Assembly (NCBI GenBank): GCA_002215675.1
Contig: NGFH01000003.1
Coordinates: forward strand, 80,957-144,956
DNA length: 64,000 bases
Source: Bacteroidetes bacterium 2013_40CM_41_45
GTDB lineage: Bacteria; Bacteroidota; Bacteroidia; AKYH767-A; 2013-40CM-41-45
Reading direction: 5' to 3'
The translations under genes and the position numbers were made by a program. Position 1 is the first letter of the stretch, and each line of letters opens with the position of its first letter. Under the pieces are notes generated by a model. It was not told the DNA's origin. It saw only the letters and a list, made by a program, of their open reading frames with translations, and made no database searches. Of this stretch, positions 3,369 to 61,549 are shown piece after piece.

Positions 3369-4298
3369 ATGACAAAAAAATTAACAATAGAATACTGTAA
3401 GAAAAAATCTAAAGAAAAAGAATATATATTGTTAGAAAATATTTATTTGAATGCTCATACGAAAATGAATTTTCAACATGTAAAATGTAAGTATATATTT
3501 TCGATGAAATGGAATAATTTTAATTCTGGAGATAGATGTCCGAATTGTCAACGCAAATCAGTTGGATTTAAAAAAAGATTAAAAATAGAAGATTGTAAAA
3601 AAATAGCTTTCAATAGAGGATTTAAATTATTGAACAATATTTATATCAACAATAAAACAAAAATGGAGTTCGTTCACATTGATTGTGGATTTAAATTTTT
3701 AAAAGGGTGGAGTAATTTTCAATCAGAAAAAGGTTGTCCAAAATGTTCTGGTAAAATTAAATTGAGCATTGAATTTTGTCAAAAAGAATCTTTCAATCGG
3801 GGTTATCAATTGCTTTCTAAAAAATATAAAAATAATAAAACAAAAATGAATTTTAAACATATTGAATGTCAATCTAATTTTTTGATGAATTGGACTAATT
3901 TCTATAATGGTAAAAGAGGTTGTCCAACATGTGATTCCAGTCTCGGAGAGTTAGAGATAAAAAAATATTTAAAAATATGGAAAATAAAAAATTATCATGA
4001 ATATTATGGATTTAAAGAATGTCGAGATAAAAAAGTTTTACCATTTGATTTCTATATAAAAAAATATAACATCTGTATTGAATATCAAGGAAAACAACAT
4101 TTTGAACCTATACAATACACATATTCAATAACTATAGAACAAGCTAAGAAAAATTTAAGAATACAAAAAAATCATGATAAAATAAAAAGAAAATTCTGTA
4201 AGAATAATAATATCATATTGCTTGAAATAAGATATAAAGATTTCAATAATATAGAAAATATTTTATATAATAAAATAGAGGAAATTAAAAATGGATAA
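3369..4298 (+). CDS. Zn-ribbon-repeat (DUF4379-like) protein with C-terminal nuclease-like module; putative homing-type endonuclease
   Basis: Three ~45-aa repeats, each ending in CPxC (CPNCQ, CPKCSG, CPTCDS). The C-terminal block FDFYIKKYNICIEYQGKQHFEP is shared with 22233 and 48931. Confidence 0.6.
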   Translation: MTKKLTIEYCKKKSKEKEYILLENIYLNAHTKMNFQHVKCKYIFSMKWNNFNSGDRCPNCQRKSVGFKKRLKIEDCKKIAFNRGFKLLNNIYINNKTKMEFVHIDCGFKFLKGWSNFQSEKGCPKCSGKIKLSIEFCQKESFNRGYQLLSKKYKNNKTKMNFKHIECQSNFLMNWTNFYNGKRGCPTCDSSLGELEIKKYLKIWKIKNYHEYYGFKECRDKKVLPFDFYIKKYNICIEYQGKQHFEPIQYTYSITIEQAKKNLRIQKNHDKIKRKFCKNNNIILLEIRYKDFNNIENILYNKIEEIKNG

Positions 4299-23947: not shown

Positions 23948-24631
23948 ATGATAAAAATTTATCGTGTGGGTGGTGCAGTAAGAGATTCTATTATGGGACT
24001 AAAATCAAAGGATATTGATTATTCTGTTGAAGCAGAATCTTTTGATGCTATGCGTGATTATATTGTTAGTATTGGCGGTCAGATATTTCTTGAAACTCCA
24101 AATTTTCTAACAATTCGTGCAAGAGTTGGTAGAGAATCGGCAGATTATGTTCTTGCACGTAAGGATAATGATTATAGTGATGGGCGCAGACCTGATTCCG
24201 TTGAACCCGGTACTCTCTATGATGACCTTGCAAGGCGTGATTTCACAATGAATGCTATCGCCATTGATTCTCAAGGATATTATATTGACCCTTTTTATGG
24301 AATCATAGATATAGGACAAAGGATTATCCGCTGTGTTGGAAAAGCAGAAGACCGTATTTCAGAAGATTGGCTTAGATTGCTTCGTGCCGCTAGATTTTCA
24401 ATCACCAAAGATATGAAAATTGATTCAACCATTACAAAATTTTTTGATGATAACTATGCAACTTCTCATCTAGCAAAATCTGTTTCTGAAGAAAGAATTC
24501 GTGAAGAAACTAGTAAAATGTTTCAAGCAGATACAAGAGTCTCAATTAAATTTTTTGGTCAATATCCTAAAATGTCATATGCTTGTTTTGGCGGTGGCAT
24601 TTGGTTAAAGCCAACAACTGAAGAGAGATAA
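23948..24631 (+). CDS. tRNA nucleotidyltransferase (CCA-adding enzyme / poly(A) polymerase head-domain family)
   Basis: GGAVRD...DIDY and RRDFTMNA motifs, typical of the class II CCA-adding head domain. Confidence 0.75.
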   Translation: MIKIYRVGGAVRDSIMGLKSKDIDYSVEAESFDAMRDYIVSIGGQIFLETPNFLTIRARVGRESADYVLARKDNDYSDGRRPDSVEPGTLYDDLARRDFTMNAIAIDSQGYYIDPFYGIIDIGQRIIRCVGKAEDRISEDWLRLLRAARFSITKDMKIDSTITKFFDDNYATSHLAKSVSEERIREETSKMFQADTRVSIKFFGQYPKMSYACFGGGIWLKPTTEER

Positions 24632-33254: not shown

Positions 33255-33264
33255 GAGAATGAAA

Positions 33265-34356
33265 ATGACCGATAGGCCAATGGCAACACTTAGAACTGTA
33301 AATAATAAATATCCTATTCCTGAAAAGGATAGGATTGAATTGATTCAGGTAGATGGATGGCAAGTAATTTCAAAAAAGGATGAATTTGAAATTGGTGATA
33401 TGTGCATATATGCTGAACCAGATTCTATTTTTCCTGAAATACCAGATTTTGAATTTCTTCGTCCTAAAAAATTTCGTATTAAAACTATGAAGATGGCTGG
33501 AGTTATTAGTCAAGGCATTGTTTTTCCATTATCAATTCTCCCCCTCCGCAACAAGAAATATGTTCTTGGCGAAGATGTTACGGAATTGATTGGTATCACA
33601 AAATATAAAAGTGAACCAGATAATTCAATTCCACAACCAACATGGATGAAAAATCCAATTGTTAAAAAACTTTTGAGATATAAAATTTTTAGAACAATTC
33701 TTTTGCCAAATAAAGAATATAAAGGATTTCCAAAATTCATTTCTAAAACAGATGAAGAAAATGTTCAAAATTTACCATATTTATTTTCTGAAGAATTTAA
33801 AAACGTTCCATTTGCTGTTCGTGAAAAAATAGAAGGTCAATCAGGAACGTGGTTTCTTCAAAGAAAAAAGAATTGGTTTGGAAAAGAAATTTTTGAATTT
33901 GGAGTTTGTTCAAGAAATATTCGTAAATTCAAAAAAGATAATTCATCATTTTGGAAAGTTGCCATAAAATATAATATTGAAAATATTCTAAAAGAATTAA
34001 TTGGTGATAAAAATGAATGGATTGCCATTCAGGGTGAATGTGTTGGCCCCGGCATTCAAGGCAATATCTATAAATTAAATGATGTTGATGTTTATATGTT
34101 TAATTATATAGAACCAAAAGGAAAAATGGATGATAAAATAGCTGAAGTTGTTATGAATTCATATAGCATTAGATGGTGTCCTTTAATTGATAATGAATAT
34201 TATCTTCCATCAACAGCAAATGATGTTCTTGAATATTCAAATGGTACATCGCTTTTATATAATACTGACCGTGAAGGATTGGTATTTCGCAATTACGAAA
34301 AAAATATTAGCTTCAAAGCACGTTCACCTAAATATTTATTAAAATCTGATACATAG
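33265..34356 (+). CDS. ATP-dependent RNA-ligase-like nucleotidyltransferase
   Basis: KIEGQSG (motif I-like K-x-E/D-G), EGLVFRN (motif IV-like) and FKARSPKYLLK (motif V-like). Confidence 0.5.
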   Translation: MTDRPMATLRTVNNKYPIPEKDRIELIQVDGWQVISKKDEFEIGDMCIYAEPDSIFPEIPDFEFLRPKKFRIKTMKMAGVISQGIVFPLSILPLRNKKYVLGEDVTELIGITKYKSEPDNSIPQPTWMKNPIVKKLLRYKIFRTILLPNKEYKGFPKFISKTDEENVQNLPYLFSEEFKNVPFAVREKIEGQSGTWFLQRKKNWFGKEIFEFGVCSRNIRKFKKDNSSFWKVAIKYNIENILKELIGDKNEWIAIQGECVGPGIQGNIYKLNDVDVYMFNYIEPKGKMDDKIAEVVMNSYSIRWCPLIDNEYYLPSTANDVLEYSNGTSLLYNTDREGLVFRNYEKNISFKARSPKYLLKSDT

Positions 34357-35191: not shown

Positions 35192-35668
35192 ATGACAATC
35201 ATTCATAAATCAGGAAATATTTTAGATGCAACAGAAAACATAATTATTCACCAAGTAAATTGTGAAGGTGTAATGGGTGCGGGTTTAGCAAAACAATTAA
35301 GAAATAAATGGCCTATAATATATACAGAATATAAAAAATTATGTGATGAAAATCGTATAAAATTTATGTTGCTCGGAAAAGTTCAATATATTAAAGTTGA
35401 TGAAAAAAAATATGTTGCAAATATGTTTTCACAATTAGGAATTGGAACTGACAAAATTCAAACAATTTATTCTGATATGAAAAAAGGTCTTAAACGTATT
35501 GAACAAGGAGCAAGATTTGATGGTCTTTCAATAGCTCTCCCTTTTCAACTAGGATGTAATCGTGCTGGTGGAGATTGGGATGGCGTAGTATATCCAATGA
35601 TTCAAGAAATTTTTAATATATCAGATGTGGATGTTGCAATTTATACATATGAATCAGAGGTCAAATGA
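35192..35668 (+). CDS. macro domain protein (ADP-ribose binding/processing)
   Basis: IIHQVNCEGVMGAGLAKQL matches the macro-domain N-terminal motif (V/I-N-x-x-N...GGG(V/L)xxA). Confidence 0.65.
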   Translation: MTIIHKSGNILDATENIIIHQVNCEGVMGAGLAKQLRNKWPIIYTEYKKLCDENRIKFMLLGKVQYIKVDEKKYVANMFSQLGIGTDKIQTIYSDMKKGLKRIEQGARFDGLSIALPFQLGCNRAGGDWDGVVYPMIQEIFNISDVDVAIYTYESEVK

Positions 35669-44886: not shown

Positions 44887-45327
44887 ATGAATGAAAAAGA
44901 ATTACTTGAACAAGCTTGGTCAATTGCAGAACAATGTCACAATGGACAGCTATATGGAACTGAACCATATTTGTATCATATTCAGAGGGTTTATAATCGT
45001 GTTGATAAATTGAAGTGGTCTATGTTTGGAGACAGAATTGTTTCTGTGTTGCATGACGTTGTTGAGGATTCAAATTATTCATTCAAAGAAATTGAAAGAA
45101 TATTTGGAAATCAAATTTATGTTGCTGTTTTTGCAATCACGAGAAGCCCTGAATTAGAAACCTATGAAGAATATATTTATAGAGTTTCAAGAAATATGAT
45201 TGCAAGAAATGTAAAGGCTTGTGATTTATTGGATAACTTATCTAATTGTTATCGTCAACCTAATCAATATGGTCATTTAATAAATAGATATGAAAATGCA
45301 TTGATTGAATTAGCATCAGGAGGTTGA
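44887..45327 (+). CDS. small alarmone hydrolase (RelA/SpoT-type HD domain (p)ppGpp hydrolase)
   Basis: AEQCHNGQLYGTEPYLYHIQRV and VLHDVVEDS match the SpoT hydrolase signature (H...H...HDVVED). Confidence 0.7.
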   Translation: MNEKELLEQAWSIAEQCHNGQLYGTEPYLYHIQRVYNRVDKLKWSMFGDRIVSVLHDVVEDSNYSFKEIERIFGNQIYVAVFAITRSPELETYEEYIYRVSRNMIARNVKACDLLDNLSNCYRQPNQYGHLINRYENALIELASGG

Positions 45328-45906: not shown

Positions 45907-46181
45907 AAAGTTATTTTCAAGAAATTATTGATGGTGAAATAGTTTGGCAAGAGGAATATAAAGGATATACTTTATATGTTATAAAAACAGATAGTTATGA
46001 TTATGTTTCTAGCTATTATACAGAAATTTATGGTGGTGGTTGGGGAAAAAATCAGGATGGTATTAAAAGCATTGAAAAGGCAAAAAGGATATGTTTTAAT
46101 ATGGCTGATTGGGATATTAAATTTCAATACAAATTAAAATTTGCTCGTGCGGCACATGATGCAATTATGGATGTCGAATAA
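45903..46181 (+). CDS. hypothetical protein
   Basis: 92 aa. Confidence 0.45.
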   Translation: MKSYFQEIIDGEIVWQEEYKGYTLYVIKTDSYDYVSSYYTEIYGGGWGKNQDGIKSIEKAKRICFNMADWDIKFQYKLKFARAAHDAIMDVE

Positions 46182-46182
46182 T

Positions 46183-46455
46183 ATGGGAAAAAGAATTTTT
46201 GATTTTAGTTTCAATGTATATGGTAAAATTGAAGTAGATGATGATGTAATTAATGTTGTAGATGATGCATGGCGTAAAGAATTATATGACCTAGAAACTC
46301 CAGAAGAAATAATTGAAATGATTGCACGTTGTATGTTACAAGGCGCGGATTTATCAAGTCTTGATGGATGGGCTAATCAACCAGATAAAAACGCAAGAAT
46401 TATTGATAAAAATTGGGAGTTGGATGAGATTAATGAATTAAATCCAGAAGATTAA
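46183..46455 (+). CDS. hypothetical protein
   Basis: Start re-set to MGKRIF. Confidence 0.4.
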   Translation: MGKRIFDFSFNVYGKIEVDDDVINVVDDAWRKELYDLETPEEIIEMIARCMLQGADLSSLDGWANQPDKNARIIDKNWELDEINELNPED

Positions 46456-46487
46456 TAAAATAAAAGAAAAATTTGAAAGGAATAAAT

Positions 46488-46658
46488 ATGAATCACTTGG
46501 ATATTTTTGGAATTTTTATAGCTGGTATTGGTTTTGGAATTGGAGTTTTTAATATAATTAATTCCTATATTTTAAATATAAAAAAGAATTTTTTACATGA
46601 ATTTTCATTGATTATTGTATGTGGTTTTGTTTTTGCTGTTGTTTTTATGTCAAATTAA
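46488..46658 (+). CDS. small membrane protein
   Basis: RBS AAAGGAA. Confidence 0.35.
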   Translation: MNHLDIFGIFIAGIGFGIGVFNIINSYILNIKKNFLHEFSLIIVCGFVFAVVFMSN

Positions 46659-46867
46659 TAAAACAATAGTTTTATAAAGGAAAAAAATATGGCAACAACT
46701 TTTGATAATAAAAATACAGAATCCCTAATATTAATGCTACAATATCTTGTTGAACTTTTGGATAATCAATTGCATGGCGGTAGTTTTAATATGGAAGAAA
46801 AAGAAGTTAAAATTTTAAGAAACAAAGTAATTGCAAGCATAGAAAATTTACAAGAATAATAACAAAA

Positions 46868-46895
46868 ACCGTCAAAATTTACCCCTTGACGGTTT
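46868..46895 (+). terminator. terminator hairpin (ACCGTCAA...TTGACGGT + T-rich tail) whose 3' arm is the -35 of the next promoter
   Basis: Seen directly. Confidence 0.45.
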
Positions 46896-46914
46896 ATTAT
46901 TTTAATGGTATAAT
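46886..46914 (+). promoter_or_regulatory. sigma70-type promoter TTGACG-N17-TGgTATAAT
   Basis: TTGACG at 46886-46891 and TATAAT at 46909-46914. Confidence 0.55.
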
Positions 46915-46935
46915 CAATGAAAATAAGGAGAGAAT

Positions 46936-48030
46936 ATGGAACTAGAATTACTTGCTTTTATCAAACATAATCCTGATTGGAAAACAATTCTTCAGGAAAA
47001 ACCATATGGAATAACTATCAAAGAAAAAAATGGTTATATTCTCTTTATGTACAGTCAAATTGAAAGTGATTTCAAATTATCTTTAGTACGTGAATGTCGT
47101 GGTTTGATTTTACGTGAAAAAGATTTAAAACCTGTTTGTATGGCTTTCAAAAAATTCGGAAATTATGGTGAAAGTTATGTTCCCGATATTGACTGGTCAA
47201 ATGTTAAAGTACAAGAAAAAGCTGACGGTTCGATAATTAAATTGTGGTTTGATAATAATGAATGGCATGTTTCTACAAATGGAACAATTGATGCATCTGA
47301 TGCTTCACTATCAGAAAATTCAATGTTAATAGATGGATGTATTTATAAAAATTATTCTGAATTATTTCATAGTGTTTTTCCACAAAATTTATATTATGAT
47401 GTTTTGAATATTGATTTATGCTATATCTTTGAATTAGTTTCAAATTTTAATAGAGTTGTGATTCCTTATAATGAAACAGCATTGTACCATATTGGCACTA
47501 GAAATATGAAAACCCTAGAAGAATTAGACATTGACATTGGAATTAAAAAACCAAAATTATATAATTTAACTTCATTAGAAGAAATTTTAGAAATAGTAAA
47601 AAAATTACCATTCAATGATGAAGGATATGTTATTTTAGACAAATTTTGGAATAGATTAAAAATAAAATCATTAGCATATATTTCTGCTCATCATTTAAAA
47701 AATAATGGTGTTGTTACAAAGAATCGTGTTCTTGATATGATTAGAACCGGCGAACAATCTGAGTTTCTTAATTATTATCCAGAATATCAAGAAATTTTTA
47801 ATGAAGTCCAAAATAAAATTAATAAACTTTTGGTATCCATTGAACATGATTATATTCTTTTCAAAAACAGAAAATTTGAAGATAGAAAAGAAATGGCATT
47901 ATGGGTAAATCAAACTGTTTGTCCGTCTGCTATATATAGTTTATATGATAAAAAAGTATCAGATGTAAATAGTTTTGTTTTCGGATTAACTAATGAGCGT
48001 TTATTGAAAATGATTGGAGAAAAAGAATGA
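46936..48030 (+). CDS. ATP-dependent RNA ligase, T4 Rnl1-like
   Basis: Motif I VQEKADGS (K at ~aa 95), motif IV DEGYVILDK, motif V RLKIKSLAY. 364 aa. Confidence 0.65.
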   Translation: MELELLAFIKHNPDWKTILQEKPYGITIKEKNGYILFMYSQIESDFKLSLVRECRGLILREKDLKPVCMAFKKFGNYGESYVPDIDWSNVKVQEKADGSIIKLWFDNNEWHVSTNGTIDASDASLSENSMLIDGCIYKNYSELFHSVFPQNLYYDVLNIDLCYIFELVSNFNRVVIPYNETALYHIGTRNMKTLEELDIDIGIKKPKLYNLTSLEEILEIVKKLPFNDEGYVILDKFWNRLKIKSLAYISAHHLKNNGVVTKNRVLDMIRTGEQSEFLNYYPEYQEIFNEVQNKINKLLVSIEHDYILFKNRKFEDRKEMALWVNQTVCPSAIYSLYDKKVSDVNSFVFGLTNERLLKMIGEKE

Positions 48031-48941
48031 CTGAACTAAGATTTCTTGTTGGAATTCCTGCAAGTGGAAAATCTACTTTTGCAAAAGAGATTTTAAAAGA
48101 TAATAATTATGTTCTTGTTTCATCGGATTCATATCGTGAAAAAATTTATGGTTCGGAAGAAATTCAAGGAAATAAAAATGAACTTTTTGAAATTATCAAT
48201 AAAGATATTATTCAATATCTTATGGATGGTAAATCTGTAATTTTTGATGCGACAAATATAGATTTAAAAAAGAGAATGGAATTAATAAAAAAAATAAATT
48301 CAAAAGTTTCAGATATTTATATAACAGCACAAGTTGTTGCAACCCAATATAAAATCTGCTTGGAAAACAACAGGAAACGGACACGTTTCGTCCCCGAATT
48401 CGTTATTAAGCGCATGTATGAAAATTTTACTTTTCCTCAAAATTTTGAAGGTATTCACAATGTCTTTATTCGGTATGATTATGATAAATATGATTATCGT
48501 CAAGAATGGCTTGAAGAACTAATGGATGATTTCAACCAAGATAATCCCCATCATAGTTCTACGCTTGGTCAGCACACACTTAAGGTTTTTGAAAATATTT
48601 TGACTGTTGCTCCCGATAATCATAGATTGCAATTGGCCGCTAAATTTCACGATATAGGAAAATTATATACAAAGACTTATAAAGATTCAAAAGGAAATCA
48701 GAAAGATTTTGCCAGTTATTATAATCATGAGCAAGTTTCGACATATGAATCTATGTTTTATCTTAAAGAAAAAAATATTCAAAATTTTGATATGTTCTAT
48801 ATTCTTGGATTGATTCAATTTCATATGAGGTTATATGGAATCAATTCTGATAAAAGCAGAGATAAACTTATAAATCTCATTGGTAGACAAATGTATGAAG
48901 ATTTAATTTTATTAAATGATGCAGATAAAAATGGAAAATAA
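48027..48941 (+). CDS. P-loop polynucleotide kinase fused to HD-domain phosphohydrolase (RNA end-healing enzyme)
   Basis: Walker A GIPASGKST. HD motifs HHSSTLGQH...KFHDIGK. 4-nt overlap with the ligase gene. Confidence 0.65.
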   Translation: MTELRFLVGIPASGKSTFAKEILKDNNYVLVSSDSYREKIYGSEEIQGNKNELFEIINKDIIQYLMDGKSVIFDATNIDLKKRMELIKKINSKVSDIYITAQVVATQYKICLENNRKRTRFVPEFVIKRMYENFTFPQNFEGIHNVFIRYDYDKYDYRQEWLEELMDDFNQDNPHHSSTLGQHTLKVFENILTVAPDNHRLQLAAKFHDIGKLYTKTYKDSKGNQKDFASYYNHEQVSTYESMFYLKEKNIQNFDMFYILGLIQFHMRLYGINSDKSRDKLINLIGRQMYEDLILLNDADKNGK

Positions 48942-50061
48942 TATAGAAAAAATAATAAAATTTTTAAATATAAAAAATTATATTTTCATTGATAATTACC
49001 ATAAAAATAATCAAATAAGAGTTATTATCCAAGACAAACTTGGCTATAAATATGATGTTCAATTTGGAAATTTAAGTGTTCAAAAGCCAAAAATTGTCCA
49101 TAAATTCAATCCCTTTAGTTTAGAAAATATAGGAATATGGATAAAGATAAATAAAAAGAATTTTTTATTATTGAAAAATAATATTTATCTAAATGCCAAT
49201 GAAAAGTTAAGATTTAAATGTTTGGATAATAAATGTAAAGAAATTTTTTTCGCAAGTTGGCATTCAATTTTTAGTGGTAGAGGATGCACATTTTGTTCTG
49301 GTTTTGAAGTTGGCAGACATAATAATTTAGAATATTTATTTCCTGAAATTGCAAAAGAATGGGATAAATCAAATTTTATAAAAGCATTTGAAATTACCTG
49401 TGGTTCAACAGAAAATATTTTATGGAAATGTAAAAAATGTGGTTATAAGTGGAATGCTTCTCCGAATCAAAGAACTTATTATAAAACGGGTTGTCCTTCT
49501 TGTTCTGGATTAATTGTTTCGGATAGTAATAGATTGTCTATTTTATTTCCAGAAATATCAAAGGAATGGCATCCAATAAAAAATGGGAATTTGACTCCAA
49601 ATGATATTAGTTATGGAAGCAATAAGAAATTTTGGTGGCTATGCCCAAAAGGACATGAATATTATTCTGCTGTTAATAATAGAATAAATGGAAGGAATTG
49701 TAAAAAATGCAAAATTAAAAAAGGTGAAAAAGAAATTATTAAAATTCTTGATATTTATAATGTAAAATATAAATTTCAATGTAATGATTTTAAAGATTGC
49801 AGAGACAAAATTGTTTTATATTTTGATTTTTATTTACCTGACTATAATATTTGTATTGAATATCAGGGAATTCAACATTATGAACCAATTGATTTTGCTG
49901 GTCGCGGTAAGAAATGGGCAAAAGAAGAATTTAAGAAAAATAAAAGAAGAGATAAAATCAAGATAAAATATTGTCAGAAAAATAATATTAAATTGATTAT
50001 TATACCTTATTGGAATTTTGATGAAATTGAAAATATTTTAAAAAGGAATTTGAAAATATGA
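48931..50061 (+). CDS. Zn-ribbon-repeat (DUF4379-like) protein with C-terminal nuclease-like module
   Basis: Repeats LFPEIAKEW...CPSCSG and LFPEISKEWHP...W.CPKGHEY. C-terminus is FDFYLPDYNICIEYQGIQHYEP. The start is uncertain (48916 or 48931). Confidence 0.6.
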   Translation: MENNIEKIIKFLNIKNYIFIDNYHKNNQIRVIIQDKLGYKYDVQFGNLSVQKPKIVHKFNPFSLENIGIWIKINKKNFLLLKNNIYLNANEKLRFKCLDNKCKEIFFASWHSIFSGRGCTFCSGFEVGRHNNLEYLFPEIAKEWDKSNFIKAFEITCGSTENILWKCKKCGYKWNASPNQRTYYKTGCPSCSGLIVSDSNRLSILFPEISKEWHPIKNGNLTPNDISYGSNKKFWWLCPKGHEYYSAVNNRINGRNCKKCKIKKGEKEIIKILDIYNVKYKFQCNDFKDCRDKIVLYFDFYLPDYNICIEYQGIQHYEPIDFAGRGKKWAKEEFKKNKRRDKIKIKYCQKNNIKLIIIPYWNFDEIENILKRNLKI

Positions 50062-50222
50062 ATGTTTATCATGTCAAAATAAATATAATCATATTAATAA
50101 TGTGTACAATTCTAGTCTTTTTTGTTGACAATCTATATCATAAACATTATTTAGATTGTGCATATAACTTAATGGGTGTTTTGGGATTACTTATAATGTA
50201 TAATCTAACAAAAGGAAAATAA

Positions 50223-50447
50223 ATGGAGGTAGCAATGAATAGAGAAACTGTTAAATTTCACTTGGAAAATATTAGAAATAATAAAAGTAAAGATGGTCAC
50301 ATTCAAGATTTAAAATTAGAGATTAGTTCATTGCGAATTATGGCCTTTAAATATAAAGGAAGTGGTTTGGCTAAGGTTGCAGAAAAAAGAGCAAACGATA
50401 TTGAAAAGGAATTAACATTAGCTATTTTGGACGCAAAAAGAAAATGA
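50223..50447 (+). CDS. hypothetical protein
   Basis: RBS AAAGGAAAA. Confidence 0.45.
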   Translation: MEVAMNRETVKFHLENIRNNKSKDGHIQDLKLEISSLRIMAFKYKGSGLAKVAEKRANDIEKELTLAILDAKRK

Positions 50448-50965
50448 ATTATAATCCAAAAAATCAAGGTGGTCTTGATAGTTTATGTTCAGTATATAGT
50501 ATTATCAATGCTTATGGAATAACGATGAATGCCACCGATAATGAACAACAAAAATTATTTAATGATATTATTGCATATCTTTCTAAAAAAAGAATTTTGA
50601 AAGACGTAATTATTGGTGGTGTTTATCATAAGCATATGGTAATGATGTTGGAAGATGTTGTTGGAGATAGAATACCAGTAAAAAATCTAATATGGAAAAG
50701 TTTTCCAACACCAACAAAAAGAATTTTCTGGAATTCAATTGTAGAACATTTATCAAATGAAAATAATGCTGTAATTTTAAGTATGGGTGGTAGGCGTGAC
50801 CATCTATCATCAGCATATCAAGCAACAGATAAATCAATAAAATTATTGGATTCTAATGGAATGAAATCAATTAGATATAAAGATTCAACTACTGATACAA
50901 GTGTTCACACAATAAAAAAATTCATGCTTTATCCAAGTCAATGTTGGTTTTTATCTAAGGAATAA
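50444..50965 (+). CDS. hypothetical protein with candidate Cys...His peptidase-like arrangement (DSLCSVYS ... GGVYHKH)
   Basis: 173 aa. The functional call is speculative. Confidence 0.4.
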   Translation: MNYNPKNQGGLDSLCSVYSIINAYGITMNATDNEQQKLFNDIIAYLSKKRILKDVIIGGVYHKHMVMMLEDVVGDRIPVKNLIWKSFPTPTKRIFWNSIVEHLSNENNAVILSMGGRRDHLSSAYQATDKSIKLLDSNGMKSIRYKDSTTDTSVHTIKKFMLYPSQCWFLSKE

Positions 50966-50966
50966 A

Positions 50967-51857
50967 ATGAAAAATTTAAAAATAATTTTTGAAACTAAAG
51001 CAGGTTCACATCTTTATGGAACAAACACTATATCTAGCGATATGGATTATCGTGGTGTTGGCGTTGTTCCAATTAAAGATATGCTTGACCCCTTCCAAGA
51101 ATTCAATCAATTTGAAGATAATGAATCTGATGATAGAATTATTTATGGATTGAAAAAATTTATGAAATTGGCAAGCGATATGAACCCCAATGTTTGTGAA
51201 TTGTTATATGCAAACGAAAATTCTATTATTAAATTAACAAAACAAGGTAAAATTCTTTTAGATAATAGAAACTTATTTCTATCACAACTTGCACGAAAAA
51301 CATTTTTTGGATATGCAGTTGCACAATTGAAAAGAATTGAATTACATAAGAATTATCTTTTAAATCCTCCAAAAAATAAACCTAATCGTGAAGATTATGG
51401 TTTGCCAGCTATGCCAAATTTTGGATTGGAAAAAATTGTCAACATGATTCATTCTCCACAAGAAACTATTGCACCTGAATGGCGTGAATATGCATTAAAA
51501 GAAAAATCATATCGTGATGCTTCAGACAATTATCAAAAATATGAACAGTGGAAAAATAATAGAAATCCAAAACGTGCATTACTAGAAGAAAAATGGGGGT
51601 ATGATTTAAAGCATTCTAATCATTTATATAGACTTTTGACTGAAGGAAGAGAATTATTAGAAACAGGAAATATTGTATTTCCTTTAAGAAATGTTGATAA
51701 ATTAAAATTTATTTTAAATGGTGGTATGACTTACAATGATTTGATGGAAGAAGTAAATGAATTAAATAAACTTTTTGAAAATTGTAAATCTAATTTACCA
51801 AATAAACCAAATATCAATAAATTAAAAGAATTATATTATAAAATTCTAGGAATATAA
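50967..51857 (+). CDS. predicted nucleotidyltransferase (Pol-beta superfamily, GS-x10-DMD)
   Basis: AGSHLYGTNTISSDMDYRGVGV. 296 aa. Confidence 0.55.
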   Translation: MKNLKIIFETKAGSHLYGTNTISSDMDYRGVGVVPIKDMLDPFQEFNQFEDNESDDRIIYGLKKFMKLASDMNPNVCELLYANENSIIKLTKQGKILLDNRNLFLSQLARKTFFGYAVAQLKRIELHKNYLLNPPKNKPNREDYGLPAMPNFGLEKIVNMIHSPQETIAPEWREYALKEKSYRDASDNYQKYEQWKNNRNPKRALLEEKWGYDLKHSNHLYRLLTEGRELLETGNIVFPLRNVDKLKFILNGGMTYNDLMEEVNELNKLFENCKSNLPNKPNINKLKELYYKILGI

Positions 51858-52623: not shown

Positions 52624-52830
52624 ATGAAGGAAATATTTATAATAGATAGTTCAAATAATACTGAAGTTGTTGGTATCAATGTCAATGATATTAAAGAAGT
52701 TTCATTAATGATTGATATGTTTATTGGTCATGGTTTTGAATATAATAATTTATCTTATGAATATAGCCATACTATTATGAAAAATTATGGTTGTGATATT
52801 TATGTTACAAAAAAAAGAAAAAGAGAATAG
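52624..52830 (+). CDS. hypothetical protein
   Basis: RBS AGGAGAAAAA. Confidence 0.45.
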   Translation: MKEIFIIDSSNNTEVVGINVNDIKEVSLMIDMFIGHGFEYNNLSYEYSHTIMKNYGCDIYVTKKRKRE

Positions 52831-52831
52831 A

Positions 52832-53311
52832 ATGAATTTAGAATTACGAATGTATTTTTTCGTCCCTTACAATATTTCAGAAATTCAAAAAGGAATACAG
52901 GCTGGTCATGCGGCTTTAGAATATGCTTATAAATATGGTCAAACAGAATTATATCAGGATTTCATTAAAAATCATAAAACTTTTATTATCTTGAATGGTG
53001 GAACAACAAGAGATATAATTAATGATGAAGATGATGGTGGAACACTTCAATCCATTCAAAGATTGCTTGGCATCAATAAAATTGAACATTCATCTTTTAA
53101 AGAACCTGATTTAAATTATGCTACTACAGCACTTTGTTTTATCGCAGATGAAAGAGTTTTTAATAAAGAAAAATATCCTGATTGGATTCCCGGAGAAAAA
53201 TGGATTAATATAGATATGCATATTTGGAATTATGATGAATGGATTAATTTTATTGGTGGAGAAAAAAATCTTTTTCTTAGAGAATTGTTGAAAGATAAAA
53301 GGTTGGCCTAA
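52832..53311 (+). CDS. Pth2-like peptidyl-tRNA hydrolase candidate
   Basis: QKGIQAGHAALEYAY resembles the Pth2 signature (K-G-K-I-A-A-Q-C-x-H-A). Confidence 0.35.
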   Translation: MNLELRMYFFVPYNISEIQKGIQAGHAALEYAYKYGQTELYQDFIKNHKTFIILNGGTTRDIINDEDDGGTLQSIQRLLGINKIEHSSFKEPDLNYATTALCFIADERVFNKEKYPDWIPGEKWINIDMHIWNYDEWINFIGGEKNLFLRELLKDKRLA

Positions 53312-56946: not shown

Positions 56947-57281
56947 ATAATAATTATTGTCCAATGCATGAAGGTAAAATAGTTCTTCTAAAACTTATGC
57001 CAGAATATTCTTCAAGCGGTATTTGGTGTGAATGTGGCCTTAGTTTCGGAAATCCTGAAATATTAGATTTATCAAAAGGATTGATTGATTTAGTTGAGGG
57101 CTGGAATTTAATGTGGGAAATGGCGCAAGATGATAAAAATTTAAATAAAGAATATTTTGAAAGAATATTTGTTGATATGGGCAATGAACTTTGTTCACAA
57201 GTTAGTAAAATTATTCCATGTTATTTTGACTCAAATATTATAAATGAAAAATGGTTTTGGGATGAAAAAAATGAATATTAA
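56943..57281 (+). CDS. hypothetical protein
   Basis: RBS AAGGAA. ATGA overlap. Confidence 0.45.
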   Translation: MNNNYCPMHEGKIVLLKLMPEYSSSGIWCECGLSFGNPEILDLSKGLIDLVEGWNLMWEMAQDDKNLNKEYFERIFVDMGNELCSQVSKIIPCYFDSNIINEKWFWDEKNEY

Positions 57282-57861
57282 TCAACAAAAAGAAATCACT
57301 AATGAAGTAATGGAACAAATATTTCCAATAGATTTATATAGTATTGTTGCTGGTGGCGCACCTAGAGACTGGTATTTCCATCGTGAAGCTTCAGATATTG
57401 ATATATTTCTTCATCGTCCAGATTTACAAACATCTTGGAGTTTCGTTGAAACATTTAAATCTATTGGATTATCAGTATCACAACTTGGAAGCAATTTAAC
57501 AAATCATCCAATATATGCTAAAAATATGTTGATTGATAAAGTGTTTGAATGTGAATATAAAAAATTAAAATTTCAATTTATTAATATGAAAGAAAAAACA
57601 TTCACATCGGTTGTTCCACAATTTCCATTAACTATTTGTAAAGCTTGGTATAAAAATGGAGAAATAAATACTTATCCTGATTTTGATGCCACCGTAAAAA
57701 ATAATGTCATAGTAAAAGTAAATGATTTATATGCAGATGGAGATAAGTATATAGAAAAAATAAGAAATAAATTTCCTTATTTTCAATATTTTGATAGTTA
57801 TGAATCTTATGGAAAATATGCTTTGAATCATATTGATTATCATAATAATATACCATTTTAA
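57271..57861 (+). CDS. nucleotidyltransferase with CCA-adding/poly(A)-polymerase-type head motif (GGAPRD...DIDIF)
   Basis: IVAGGAPRDWYFHREASDIDIFL. Confidence 0.45.
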   Translation: MNINQQKEITNEVMEQIFPIDLYSIVAGGAPRDWYFHREASDIDIFLHRPDLQTSWSFVETFKSIGLSVSQLGSNLTNHPIYAKNMLIDKVFECEYKKLKFQFINMKEKTFTSVVPQFPLTICKAWYKNGEINTYPDFDATVKNNVIVKVNDLYADGDKYIEKIRNKFPYFQYFDSYESYGKYALNHIDYHNNIPF

Positions 57862-57872
57862 AGGAAATAGAT

Positions 57873-58214
57873 ATGGCTATTTATGTAAAAAATGAAAAGA
57901 AAGATGGAGACAAATCTTTTCCGGGTAGAATGGTATATATCGGAAGACCATCAATACTTGGAAATCCATATTCTCATTTGTCAAATACTTTGGCTGAATT
58001 CAAGGTAAAAAATAGAAAAGAAGCCATTGACAAATATAAGGAAATGTTTTATAATAGGATATTGTACGATGTTGAATTTAGAACGGCAATTGATTCTATT
58101 GTAAAAGATGCTTTTATTGGTCATAATATTTATTTGTTCTGCTGGTGTAAACCATTTGCTTGTCATGGTGATATTATAAAAGAATATATTGAAAGTAAAT
58201 TGAGGAATAAATGA
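57873..58214 (+). CDS. hypothetical protein (GNPY motif, DUF4326-like)
   Basis: 113 aa. Confidence 0.4.
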   Translation: MAIYVKNEKKDGDKSFPGRMVYIGRPSILGNPYSHLSNTLAEFKVKNRKEAIDKYKEMFYNRILYDVEFRTAIDSIVKDAFIGHNIYLFCWCKPFACHGDIIKEYIESKLRNK

Positions 58215-58783
58215 CCATATTTTTTACGGCTGATACACATTTTGGACATAAGAATATCATAAAACTTTGTAATCGTCCATTCAATGATGTTGACGAGATG
58301 AATAGAGAAATGATTTCAAGATGGAATTCCAAAGTTACAAAAAATGATATTATCTATCATTTGGGAGATTTTTCTTTTGGTGGATGGAATTTTGCATCAT
58401 CTATATTTCAACAGCTTCATGGCTCAACTATGGTATTGCAAGGTAATCATGATGATTGGTATAGAAATGCTACCAATATCAATGTTCACACAATACCAAA
58501 TTTGAGTGAAATCAACATTCCTGAATTAAAAATTGATGGTCATGAACAAAAAATAATTTTATGTCATTATCCAATGCGTTCATGGAATAAATCTTTTCAT
58601 GGTTCATGGCATTTATTTGGTCATGTTCATGGAACTTTAGAACCATATGGACTTTCATTTGATTGTGGTGTAGATACCAATAATTTTTATCCTTATTCTT
58701 TGAATGATGTAAAAGATAAAATGATTATTTTACAATCTGAGATAGATAACAATAAAAAGGATTATCATGTGCCTATTGTGTAA
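58211..58783 (+). CDS. calcineurin-like metallophosphoesterase
   Basis: Motifs DTHFGH, GDFSF and GNHD. Confidence 0.7.
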   Translation: MTIFFTADTHFGHKNIIKLCNRPFNDVDEMNREMISRWNSKVTKNDIIYHLGDFSFGGWNFASSIFQQLHGSTMVLQGNHDDWYRNATNINVHTIPNLSEINIPELKIDGHEQKIILCHYPMRSWNKSFHGSWHLFGHVHGTLEPYGLSFDCGVDTNNFYPYSLNDVKDKMIILQSEIDNNKKDYHVPIV

Positions 58784-61455: not shown

Positions 61456-61536
61456 GAGTTTGTAGCCTATTGGGATGGCATCTGCCTCTTAAGCAGACAG
61501 AGTAATCTAGAACAGGTTCGATTCCTGTCAGACTCA
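61456..61536 (+). tRNA. atypical tRNA, anticodon CTT (Lys by anticodon) with 3-bp D-stem and 14-nt variable region
   Basis: Acceptor GAGTTTG/CAGACTC (one G-U pair). Anticodon stem TCTGC/GCAGA with loop CTCTTAA. T-arm ACAGG-TTCGATT-CCTGT. Confidence 0.45.
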
Positions 61537-61549
61537 CAGAAATAAAAAT

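Follow-up and report, generated by a model that had tools for sequence, protein, structure and literature searches.

A phage gene pair encoding an Rnl1-family RNA ligase and a kinase-HD protein: a probable RNA repair cassette

The gene pair and its setting

Two overlapping genes on the forward strand of a 64,000-nucleotide (nt) stretch of contig NGFH01000003.1 (assembly GCA_002215675.1, filed under Bacteroidetes bacterium 2013_40CM_41_45) are the subject of this analysis. The stretch as a whole is called the window, and all coordinates are positions within it. The upstream gene encodes an RNA ligase of the T4 Rnl1 family, and the downstream gene a protein with an N-terminal P-loop kinase and a C-terminal HD domain, here termed kinase-HD. 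The open reading frames (ORFs) span 46936..48030 (+, 364 amino acids (aa)) and 48027..48941 (+, 304 aa), on the strand and at the coordinates where a first-pass annotation made from the sequence had placed them, and the 4-nt overlap that it described is the ATGA at 48027-48030. The same two genes were called independently on an identical 96.6-kb JGI metagenome contig, and the kinase-HD protein is present on contigs of up to 148 kb.

The window is ~27% G+C and dense with short co-oriented ORFs, and its genes include a pair of HNH/DUF4379 homing-endonuclease paralogues as well as 11 tRNAs in an array. Comparison of the DNA at 46000-50100 with 50,697 phage records returned only short matches to the homing-endonuclease gene, leaving the ligase and kinase-HD genes unmatched, which indicates that there is no close cultured relative among them. 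Overall, the window fits a large virulent phage without such a relative. The features of the pair and of its upstream region are as follows.

46866..46895 (+): 12-bp G+C-containing hairpin (AAACCGTCAAAATTTACCCCTTGACGGTTT) followed by ATTATTTT, from a terminator scan and the sequence
46886..46914 (+): sigma-70-type promoter candidate, TTGACG, 17-nt spacer with extended TG, TATAAT, matching at 11 of 12 positions
46926..46931 (+): ribosome-binding site AAGGAG, read from the sequence, 4 nt (5-nt spacing) before the ligase ATG
46936..48030 (+): Rnl1-family (T4 RnlA-like) ATP-dependent RNA ligase, 364 aa, from Pfam, PHROG, PDB and RM378 matches
48027..48500 (+): N-terminal polynucleotide 5'-OH kinase domain of the kinase-HD protein, about residues 1-158, from AAA_33, PHROG 505, PDB and Foldseek
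48501..48941 (+): C-terminal HD phosphoesterase domain, about residues 159-304, from Pfam, PHROG 6931, NCBIfam, a PDB profile search and Foldseek

The hairpin has a T-rich tail and is probably a terminator closing the upstream unit; the terminator scan reported it on the minus strand, and the palindrome reads alike on the plus strand. Its 3' arm includes the -35 hexamer of the promoter candidate that follows, which is the best match in the 8-kb region scanned. The number of promoter-like sites in this region did not exceed shuffled expectation, so the promoter call draws on match quality and position only. A GGAG also lies upstream of the ATGA at which the kinase-HD ORF begins. At the level of consensus signals, the ligase and kinase-HD genes look like a self-contained, translationally coupled unit.

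Active sites and folds of the two proteins

The 364-aa protein matched Pfam RNA_lig_T4_1 (PF09511; E=3e-13, 50.5 bits against a cut-off of 28.3) and PHROG 562 (E=7e-42, residues 29-342). Its sequence matches in the PDB were T4 Rnl1 entries only (E=3e-10), and the RNA ligase of phage RM378, at 27% identity (E=1e-21), was closer than T4 Rnl1. The adenylyltransferase motifs quoted in the first-pass annotation are all there, with K95-A-D97-G98 as motif I (K95 being the nucleophile), E229-G230 of the string E229-G-Y-V-I-L as motif IV and K242/K244 of K242-I-K244 as motif V; motif III is represented by E166. When 31 ligases adjoining kinase-HD genes were aligned, R55, K73, K95, D97, G98, E166, E229, G230, K242, K244 and Y248 were invariant. 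These 11 residues align to T4 R54, K75, K99, D101, G102, E159, E227, G228, K240, K242 and Y246, which we take to be the essential positions of the T4 Rnl1 mutational literature. As in T4, ~115 residues lie C-terminal of motif V. The earlier call of a T4 Rnl1-like RNA ligase is therefore upheld by both profile matches and by a complete set of catalytic residues, and on its sequence the protein is an Rnl1-family member with an intact adenylyltransferase site rather than a T4 RnlA equivalog.

PHROG 562 and several GenBank records are labelled 'RNA ligase and tail fiber protein attachment catalyst', after the second activity of T4 gp63. If the window homologue were mainly such a tail-fibre attachment factor, its pairing with a kinase would be uninformative on RNA repair. 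We attach next to no weight to this explanation, given that the name is inherited from T4 gp63, that the adenylyltransferase residues are all conserved, that the gene sits among nucleic-acid-metabolism genes and not tail genes, and that it is apparently coupled in translation to a predicted end-healing enzyme. The ligase is accordingly treated below as an RNA-sealing candidate.

The kinase half of the 304-aa protein matched AAA_33 (2e-18) and PHROG 505 'polynucleotide kinase' (1e-21), the latter over profile positions 1-145 of 295 only. Its sequence relatives in the PDB are CthPnk, the kinase domain of C. thermocellum Pnkp (1e-10), Capnocytophaga Pnkp1, PSTK and T4 Pnk. T4 Pnkp structures align over residues 4-134 only, and the bacterial Pnkp model TIGR04075, which spans kinase, calcineurin-type phosphatase and ligase-like domains, matched over positions 11-138 of 851 only (56.9 bits against a cut-off of 750). 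The P-loop G9-IPAS-G14-K15-S16-T17, already recognised in the first-pass annotation as G9-IPASGKST, aligns to CthPnk K21/S22/T23; G9, S13 and G14 are invariant in a 20-sequence family alignment and K15 nearly so. The Michaelis complex of CthPnk defined K21, S22, D38 (the general base), R41, T80, R120 and R123 as key residues (PMC3902929). Their counterparts K15, S16, D34, R37, T76, R118 and R120 are invariant or nearly so in the family alignment. The acceptor-site residues D38/R41 of CthPnk correspond to D35/R38 of T4 and D34/R37 of the window protein, with R118 and R120 as the lid arginines, and an Asn occupies the position of the nucleobase-stacking R116 of CthPnk.

An AlphaFold model of the whole 304-aa protein, built from the 20-sequence alignment, reached a predicted local distance difference test score (pLDDT) of 93 and a predicted TM score of 0.91. 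CthPnk was its top Foldseek match (E=1e-8; target-normalised TM 0.73-0.76), with PSTK, mammalian PNKP, Pnkp1 and T4 Pnk among the further matches. The P-loop kinase named in the first-pass annotation is thus confirmed by the AAA_33 and PHROG 505 matches and by the CthPnk fold. Because the counterparts of the key CthPnk residues are invariant or nearly invariant, the domain is identified as a polynucleotide (or tRNA) kinase and not a small-molecule kinase.

Weaker matches to Zeta_toxin, KTI12, 6PF2K, gluconate and adenylate kinases and HD families raise the alternative that kinase-HD acts on small molecules such as nucleotide second messengers or alarmones, with the adjacent ligase incidental, and phages do encode enzymes that degrade nucleotide signals (PMC7824862). 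We consider this very improbable: the D34-x-x-R37 element, which is specific to polynucleotide kinases, is invariant together with the lid arginines, and the best matches in both sequence and fold are polynucleotide or tRNA kinases. Moreover, a ligase adjoins the gene at more than half of the related loci counted below (35/65), and the adjacency is therefore not incidental. The evidence thus favours a kinase acting on polynucleotide ends.

Since the whole model matched kinases only, the HD half was modelled alone, giving a pLDDT of 95.8 and a Foldseek TM of 0.68 to the HD domain of 3wfo/3wfp; the next matches were di-metal HD proteins, among them PhnZ and MIOX. Pfam HD (PF01966) was matched by the whole protein (E=1e-4, 22.9 bits) and by the HD half on its own (E=2e-5, 25.1 bits against a cut-off of 22). 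The HD half also matched the N-terminal HD region of PHROG 6931 (6e-14) and the HD region of the NCBIfam model for the actinobacterial CCA-adding enzyme (3e-6). A 16-sequence HD profile searched against the PDB hit a class-II tRNA nucleotidyltransferase, presumably the Aquifex CC-adding enzyme, in its HD domain (3wfp-3wfs, 2.6e-5). Both strings on which the first-pass annotation based its HD assignment, H175-HSSTLGQH and F207-HDIGK, are present, and H176, H183, H208-D209, H234, H266 and D300 are invariant in the family, forming a site of six to seven ligands (H, H, HD, H, H, D). With PHROG 505 confined to the kinase half, the C-terminal half is HD and not a HAD acyl-phosphatase, in agreement with the earlier proposal that an HD domain stands in place of the HAD phosphatase.

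In the CCA-adding enzyme of E. coli, the HD domain reportedly acts as a 2',3'-cyclic phosphodiesterase, 2'-nucleotidase and phosphatase, from work by Yakunin in 2004 that PMC2190708 cites. Given that the nearest sequence and fold relative of the window HD half is the HD domain of a class-II tRNA nucleotidyltransferase, the 3'-end healing that the HAD domain performs in T4 Pnkp most plausibly falls to HD here, and the HD half is predicted to be a 2',3'-cyclic phosphodiesterase/3'-phosphatase. Overall, the profile searches and structure predictions that the first-pass annotation had suggested as checks both favour the ligase and kinase-HD identities.

Relatives, gene neighbourhoods and proposed function

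The pair shares with T4 Pnkp (pseT) and Rnl1 (gp63), which repair tRNA in the face of the PrrC anticodon nuclease, the heal-seal logic, the ligase family and the kinase clade, as well as the order kinase then phosphatase within the healing enzyme. The sizes are also alike, at 364 versus 374 aa for the ligase and 304 versus 301 aa for the healing enzyme. In contrast, the T4 phosphatase is a HAD/DxDxT acyl-phosphatase where the window protein has an HD metal-dependent phosphoesterase domain, and the window genes overlap in one unit whereas the T4 Pnkp and Rnl1 genes are unlinked.

The closest characterised pair is the polynucleotide kinase (PNK) and RNA ligase of the Rhodothermus phage RM378. 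The family profile found this PNK in the RM378 genome as Rm378p110, with both domains matched (E=7e-26). By BLASTP it shares 26% identity with the window protein in the kinase domain (E=4e-7) and 29% in the HD domain (E=6e-7), hhalign aligned the two HD domains with a probability of 95.9% (E=6e-9), and H176, H183, H208-D209, H234, H266 and D300 are all conserved in it. The domain order is reversed: the 361-aa RM378 PNK has its HD at 11-159 and its kinase at 188-336, versus kinase at 1-158 and HD at 159-304 in the window protein. The two window genes overlap, while their RM378 counterparts are 6.5 kb apart and on opposite strands. RefSeq still lists RM378 PNK (NC_004735 98060-99145) as a 'probable poly A polymerase', a label presumably prompted by the likeness between its HD domain and the one in CCA/poly(A) polymerases. 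According to PMC1997131, RM378 PNK (Blondal 2005) is the one enzyme in which 3'-phosphatase activity was shown in the HD domain.

The same paper characterises the Deinococcus radiodurans homologue DRB0098 (2007). PMC6097658 describes the HD-Pnk of Runella slithyformis (Munir & Shuman 2017) as an end-healing enzyme with two functions, and an ATP-dependent ligase ORF upstream runs into the 5' end of its ORF. Like the window protein, Runella HD-Pnk and DRB0098 combine an HD 2',3'-phosphoesterase with a 5'-OH kinase in one polypeptide, and the Runella gene mirrors the window kinase-HD gene in its overlap with a ligase ORF. Both are bacterial genes with the order HD then kinase, unlike the kinase-then-HD phage gene of the window, and, as compared by description only, the Runella partner ligase is not of the Rnl1 family to which the window ligase belongs. 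A few jumbo phages have been noted to carry a calcineurin-like or HD-like RNA-repair phosphatase (PMC7824862), and PHROG 6931, which both halves of the window protein match, is a permuted phage family with HD preceding kinase.

The bacterial Pnkp/Hen1 and Pnkp1-Rnl-Hen1 systems of C. thermocellum and Capnocytophaga provide the closest solved relative of the kinase and follow the same heal-then-seal logic. They differ in using a calcineurin-type binuclear metallophosphoesterase, a ligase of a different family in fusion or complex, and Hen1 methylation, where the window has HD and an Rnl1-type ligase. No Hen1 homologue was found among the genes adjoining the window pair, the rest of the window not having been searched for Hen1.

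From these alignments, the window protein unites the domain order of T4 with an RM378-type phosphatase, while the characterised HD-type enzymes all run HD then kinase. It shares its domains with the HD-type PNKs and would work like them, but in a distinct, permuted architecture. The first-pass annotation had called it a non-canonical healing enzyme; the exchange of HD for HAD is real, but its novelty was overstated, as HD-type enzymes were described between 2005 and 2017 (PMC1997131, PMC6097658). Such healing enzymes have been recognised for about two decades, and the kinase-then-HD order is the only distinctive trait of the window pair. We found no biochemical study of this order in the literature searched, and the 2016 survey by Burroughs & Aravind may list it.

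The architecture is abundant. A word-indexed search with the kinase-HD protein gave 518 matches, essentially all ~300 aa and full-length, and the kinase-HD profile found 2,044 at E<=1e-30 among 1.84 billion cluster representatives (50% identity), the best 150 of which were nearly all collinear, full-length and ~300 aa. Among cultured phages, tblastn returned 39 records with at least 80% coverage and 26-33% identity to the window kinase-HD; phages with the gene include Bacillus phages Tsamsa, PBC2, Kirov, FADO, PK-3 and Thrax1-5 and jumbo phage G (gp264). The Bacillus phage genes have the same kinase-then-HD architecture (~320-340 aa, 97-100% query coverage) and lie directly downstream of an RnlA-family ligase, with a 1-nt overlap in PK-3; they differ from the window gene only in sequence divergence and host. 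No published biochemistry was found for these Bacillus phage enzymes. The architecture is already annotated in cultured phages, under the labels 'polynucleotide kinase', 'AAA family ATPase' and 'HD-domain containing protein', next to genes labelled 'RNA ligase', 'tRNA ligase' or 'RnlA family RNA ligase'. Across databases the labels are mostly 'AAA family ATPase', and the profile libraries searched hold no dedicated profile for the family. Two members, P0205 (474 aa) and P0253 (488 aa), are ~170 aa longer, and their profile match breaks near position 217, inside HD, as would fit the insertion of an intein, an additional domain or a similar element.

Gene neighbourhoods were sampled from 80 IMG/VR loci, the full-length matches among 80 genome loci, and 4 context loci. 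The resulting 97 full-length kinase-HD genes formed 65 clusters at 90% identity; cyanobacterial matches, being kinase-only proteins or long fusions, were left out of the count, and a recount took in divergent PF09414-type ligases after a Pfam check of loci L017 and L010. The partners were distributed as follows.

RNA ligase within 300 nt of kinase-HD, same strand: 35/65 clusters
RNA ligase within 2.5 kb, same strand: 51/65 clusters (24 Rnl1-type, 27 PF09414-type)
Ligase or RlaP within 2.5 kb, same strand: 56/65 clusters
Neither ligase nor RlaP within 6 kb: 9/65 clusters

RlaP, a nucleotidyltransferase, directly adjoined the kinase-HD gene in 17 of the 65 loci in an initial count. On the strength of these partner counts, kinase-HD is the constant healing component of a three-slot cassette that consists of an Rnl1- or PF09414-type ligase, an optional RlaP and kinase-HD itself. 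The window holds all three partner types, namely an Rnl1-type ligase, RlaP and a PF09414-type ligase. At about 27 of the 65 loci (for example L043, L054, L057, L065, L017 and L010) a PF09414-type ligase lies directly upstream of kinase-HD in place of Rnl1, and the window phage carries both alternative ligase partners, the second at 33259-34356.

The pair might instead be a DNA-end repair module for breaks with 3'-phosphate and 5'-OH ends, as first proposed for Deinococcus DRB0098-DRB0100. DRB0098 phosphorylates DNA 5'-OH ends, and its operon, which is induced by radiation, also encodes an ATP-dependent ligase (PMC1997131); the Munir & Shuman title, as cited in PMC6097658, calls Runella HD-Pnk a DNA/RNA end-healing enzyme. 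We nonetheless judge a DNA function improbable. The window ligase belongs to the Rnl1 family of RNA ligases and not to a DNA-ligase family, the alternative partners elsewhere are PF09414 RNA ligases and RlaP, the cellular substrates of which are RNA only, and Bacillus phage PK-3 has a separate ATP-dependent DNA ligase near its pair.

Taken together, the ligase and kinase-HD genes probably constitute a phage RNA heal-and-seal repair cassette transcribed as one unit. The first-pass annotation had read the pair as a tRNA-restriction-repair module, and this reading gains support from the conserved gene neighbourhood across the 65 dereplicated loci and from the crosswise homology to RM378. The enzymatic activities, the tRNA substrate and the role in counter-defence would follow the precedents of T4, RM378, Runella and RlaP. 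In this scheme, a host ribonuclease would cut RNA, most likely a tRNA anticodon loop, to leave 2',3'-cyclic-phosphate (or 3'-phosphate) and 5'-OH ends. The HD domain, as a transition-metal phosphoesterase like those of bacterial CCA-adding enzymes and RM378 PNK, would remove the 2',3'-cyclic or 3'-phosphate to give a 3'-OH, and the P-loop kinase would phosphorylate the 5'-OH from an NTP; D34 would serve as the general base, R37 would hold the acceptor, and K15, S16 and Mg2+ would act on the donor. The Rnl1-type ligase would then seal the 3'-OH/5'-PO4 break via a K95-AMP intermediate. Where an excising, RloC-type nuclease has taken nucleotides out, RlaP, encoded 2 kb downstream, may put them back before sealing.

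Several observations weigh against this assignment. The whole-protein score for Pfam HD is barely over its cut-off (22.9 versus 22.0 bits), and no ligase or RlaP lies within 6 kb at nine of the 65 related loci. The ligase scored 42 bits where the cut-off of the NCBIfam T4 RnlA equivalog TIGR02308 is 242, and its C-terminal region, which determines specificity, aligns to PHROG 562 and not to T4 Rnl1, the direct alignment ending at residue 277; specificity for the anticodon loop is thus not to be assumed. Mutants of DRB0098 in the HD motif kept 3'-phosphatase activity, so HD-borne activity is not established for that enzyme (PMC1997131). The Runella partner ligase sealed none of the substrates tested (PMC6097658), and cassettes of this kind may therefore act on unusual substrates.

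More tentatively, the kinase-then-HD proteins could form a distinct end-healing clade, derived by permuting the domains of the HD-then-kinase enzymes of RM378 and Runella or by a fusion separate from theirs, and be the common healer of the three-slot phage cassette. Such enzymes may repair damage beyond the reach of T4-type Pnkp, for example the ends left by wobble-excising, RloC-like nucleases, and the HD site might differ from HAD in end-product specificity. We regard this extended proposal as a doubtful one, and clearly less secure than the repair cassette itself.

Defences that cleave RNA, through anticodon nucleases or further effectors that cut tRNA, are gaining recognition, and the known antidote to them is the heal-and-seal enzymes of phages. 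The window pair opens no new mechanism, the module type having been known since T4 and RM378, and it offers a compact example with a promoter candidate of its own, apparently coupled translation and intact active sites. For annotation, kinase-HD genes could be called as polynucleotide kinase/HD-phosphoesterase. For enzyme discovery, the family would be a source of compact end-healing enzymes, and for host prediction its genes would flag phages whose hosts probably deploy RNA-cutting defences. The idea that the locus is itself a defence or abortive-infection module was considered and rejected: PADLOC gave no match for the ligase, RlaP or the kinase, and only a weak, generic Cas3-HD match for the HD half.

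RlaP and other genes of the window

The region around the pair is rich in RNA-end enzymes and tRNAs. The main ones, together with a macro-domain protein, are listed here.

23948-24631 (+): CCA-adding-type nucleotidyltransferase, 227 aa, PolyA_pol head (1e-21) and a weak RNA-binding match
33259-34356 (+): second ligase, PHA02142 OB fold and PF09414
35192-35668 (+): macro-domain protein, 158 aa, PDB macrodomains (2e-13) and PADLOC DarG (6e-24)
50967..51857 (+): RlaP (PF10127) Pol-beta nucleotidyltransferase, 296 aa, Pfam RlaP (4e-17) and PHROG 388 (5e-54)
58211-58783 (+): phosphoesterase, PHROG 547 (9e-50), with Pfam Metallophos_2 below cut-off

RlaP was absent from the toolkit of accessory genes drawn up in the first-pass annotation. 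RlaP enzymes add one to two nucleotides to damaged RNA 3' ends and make over-trimmed tRNA chargeable again (PMC12776372). The window RlaP, which is parted from the pair by three small ORFs and a homing-endonuclease gene, is a probable accessory of the repair pathway and would rebuild trimmed RNA 3' ends by one to two nucleotides. The endonuclease gene (48916/48931-50061, +) overlaps the kinase-HD stop codon. Many related phages have RlaP immediately beside the repair pair, so the endonuclease gene may have inserted into an ancestral cassette and divided it. This gene and its paralogue at 3369-4298 (+) encode free-standing HNH/DUF4379 enzymes that match PHROG 559 (4e-53 and 1e-62, respectively). 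A 173-aa ORF at 50444-50965 (+) ends 1 nt before the RlaP start and is apparently coupled to it; Pfam, PHROGs and PADLOC gave no match for this ORF.

The accessory genes that the first-pass annotation did list fared unevenly. Its CCA-adding enzyme at 23948, its second ligase and its phosphoesterase at 58211 were borne out by the matches given above, the last by PHROG 547, with Metallophos_2 remaining sub-cut-off. The macro domain at 35192 is present, and the PDB and DarG matches attest to it; no Pfam match was obtained at E<=0.01. Its supposed place in a tRNA toolkit fell away, as the likeness to DarG speaks less for tRNA repair than for removal of ADP-ribose from DNA, and the phage may use the protein against DNA ADP-ribosylation of the DarT type. 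The Pth2-like gene (52787-53311) found no match in Pfam or the PDB and only PHROG 3668, 'hydrolase', so that this call was rejected as unsupported, and the 12 tRNAs reported became 11 by ARAGORN and nine by Rfam.

The CCA-adding-type enzyme lacks the HD domain that many bacterial CCA enzymes have, and kinase-HD carries one whose closest similarity is to that of bacterial CCA enzymes. Among the tRNA genes, ARAGORN called a tRNA-Lys(CTT) of 82 nt at 61456-61537 (+), long for class I, and Rfam scored it as a full-length tRNA (58 bits).

With 11 tRNA genes and a 227-aa, HD-less CCA-adding-type enzyme in the window, a fused HD domain of CCA-enzyme type and an unusually long tRNA-Lys(CTT), the cassette could conceivably serve the RNA metabolism of the phage itself, through processing and rejoining of tRNAs or transcripts, or through upkeep of tRNA 3' ends together with the HD-less CCA enzyme. 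We hold this to be unlikely, if the least unlikely of the alternatives weighed here. Rfam at gathering threshold returned tRNAs only and no intron family, a dedicated search for introns or split tRNAs not having been made. The consistent partners of kinase-HD, ligase and RlaP, are tied to damage repair (PMC7824862, PMC12776372), and the T4 precedent is one of counter-defence. Repair of RNA cut by host nucleases is therefore retained as the probable role of the pair.

About 1.6 kb upstream of the repair pair, a 146-aa ORF at 44887-45327 (+) resembles HD_4 and SpoT hydrolases (NCBIfam spoT_relA N-terminal, 2e-9; PHROG 990, 1e-31) and would be a small alarmone-hydrolase-like enzyme. Downstream of RlaP, a nucleotidyltransferase at 57244-57861 (+; PHROG 10174, 2e-22) lies near the phosphoesterase at 58211-58783, and the two may be additional RNA-end enzymes.

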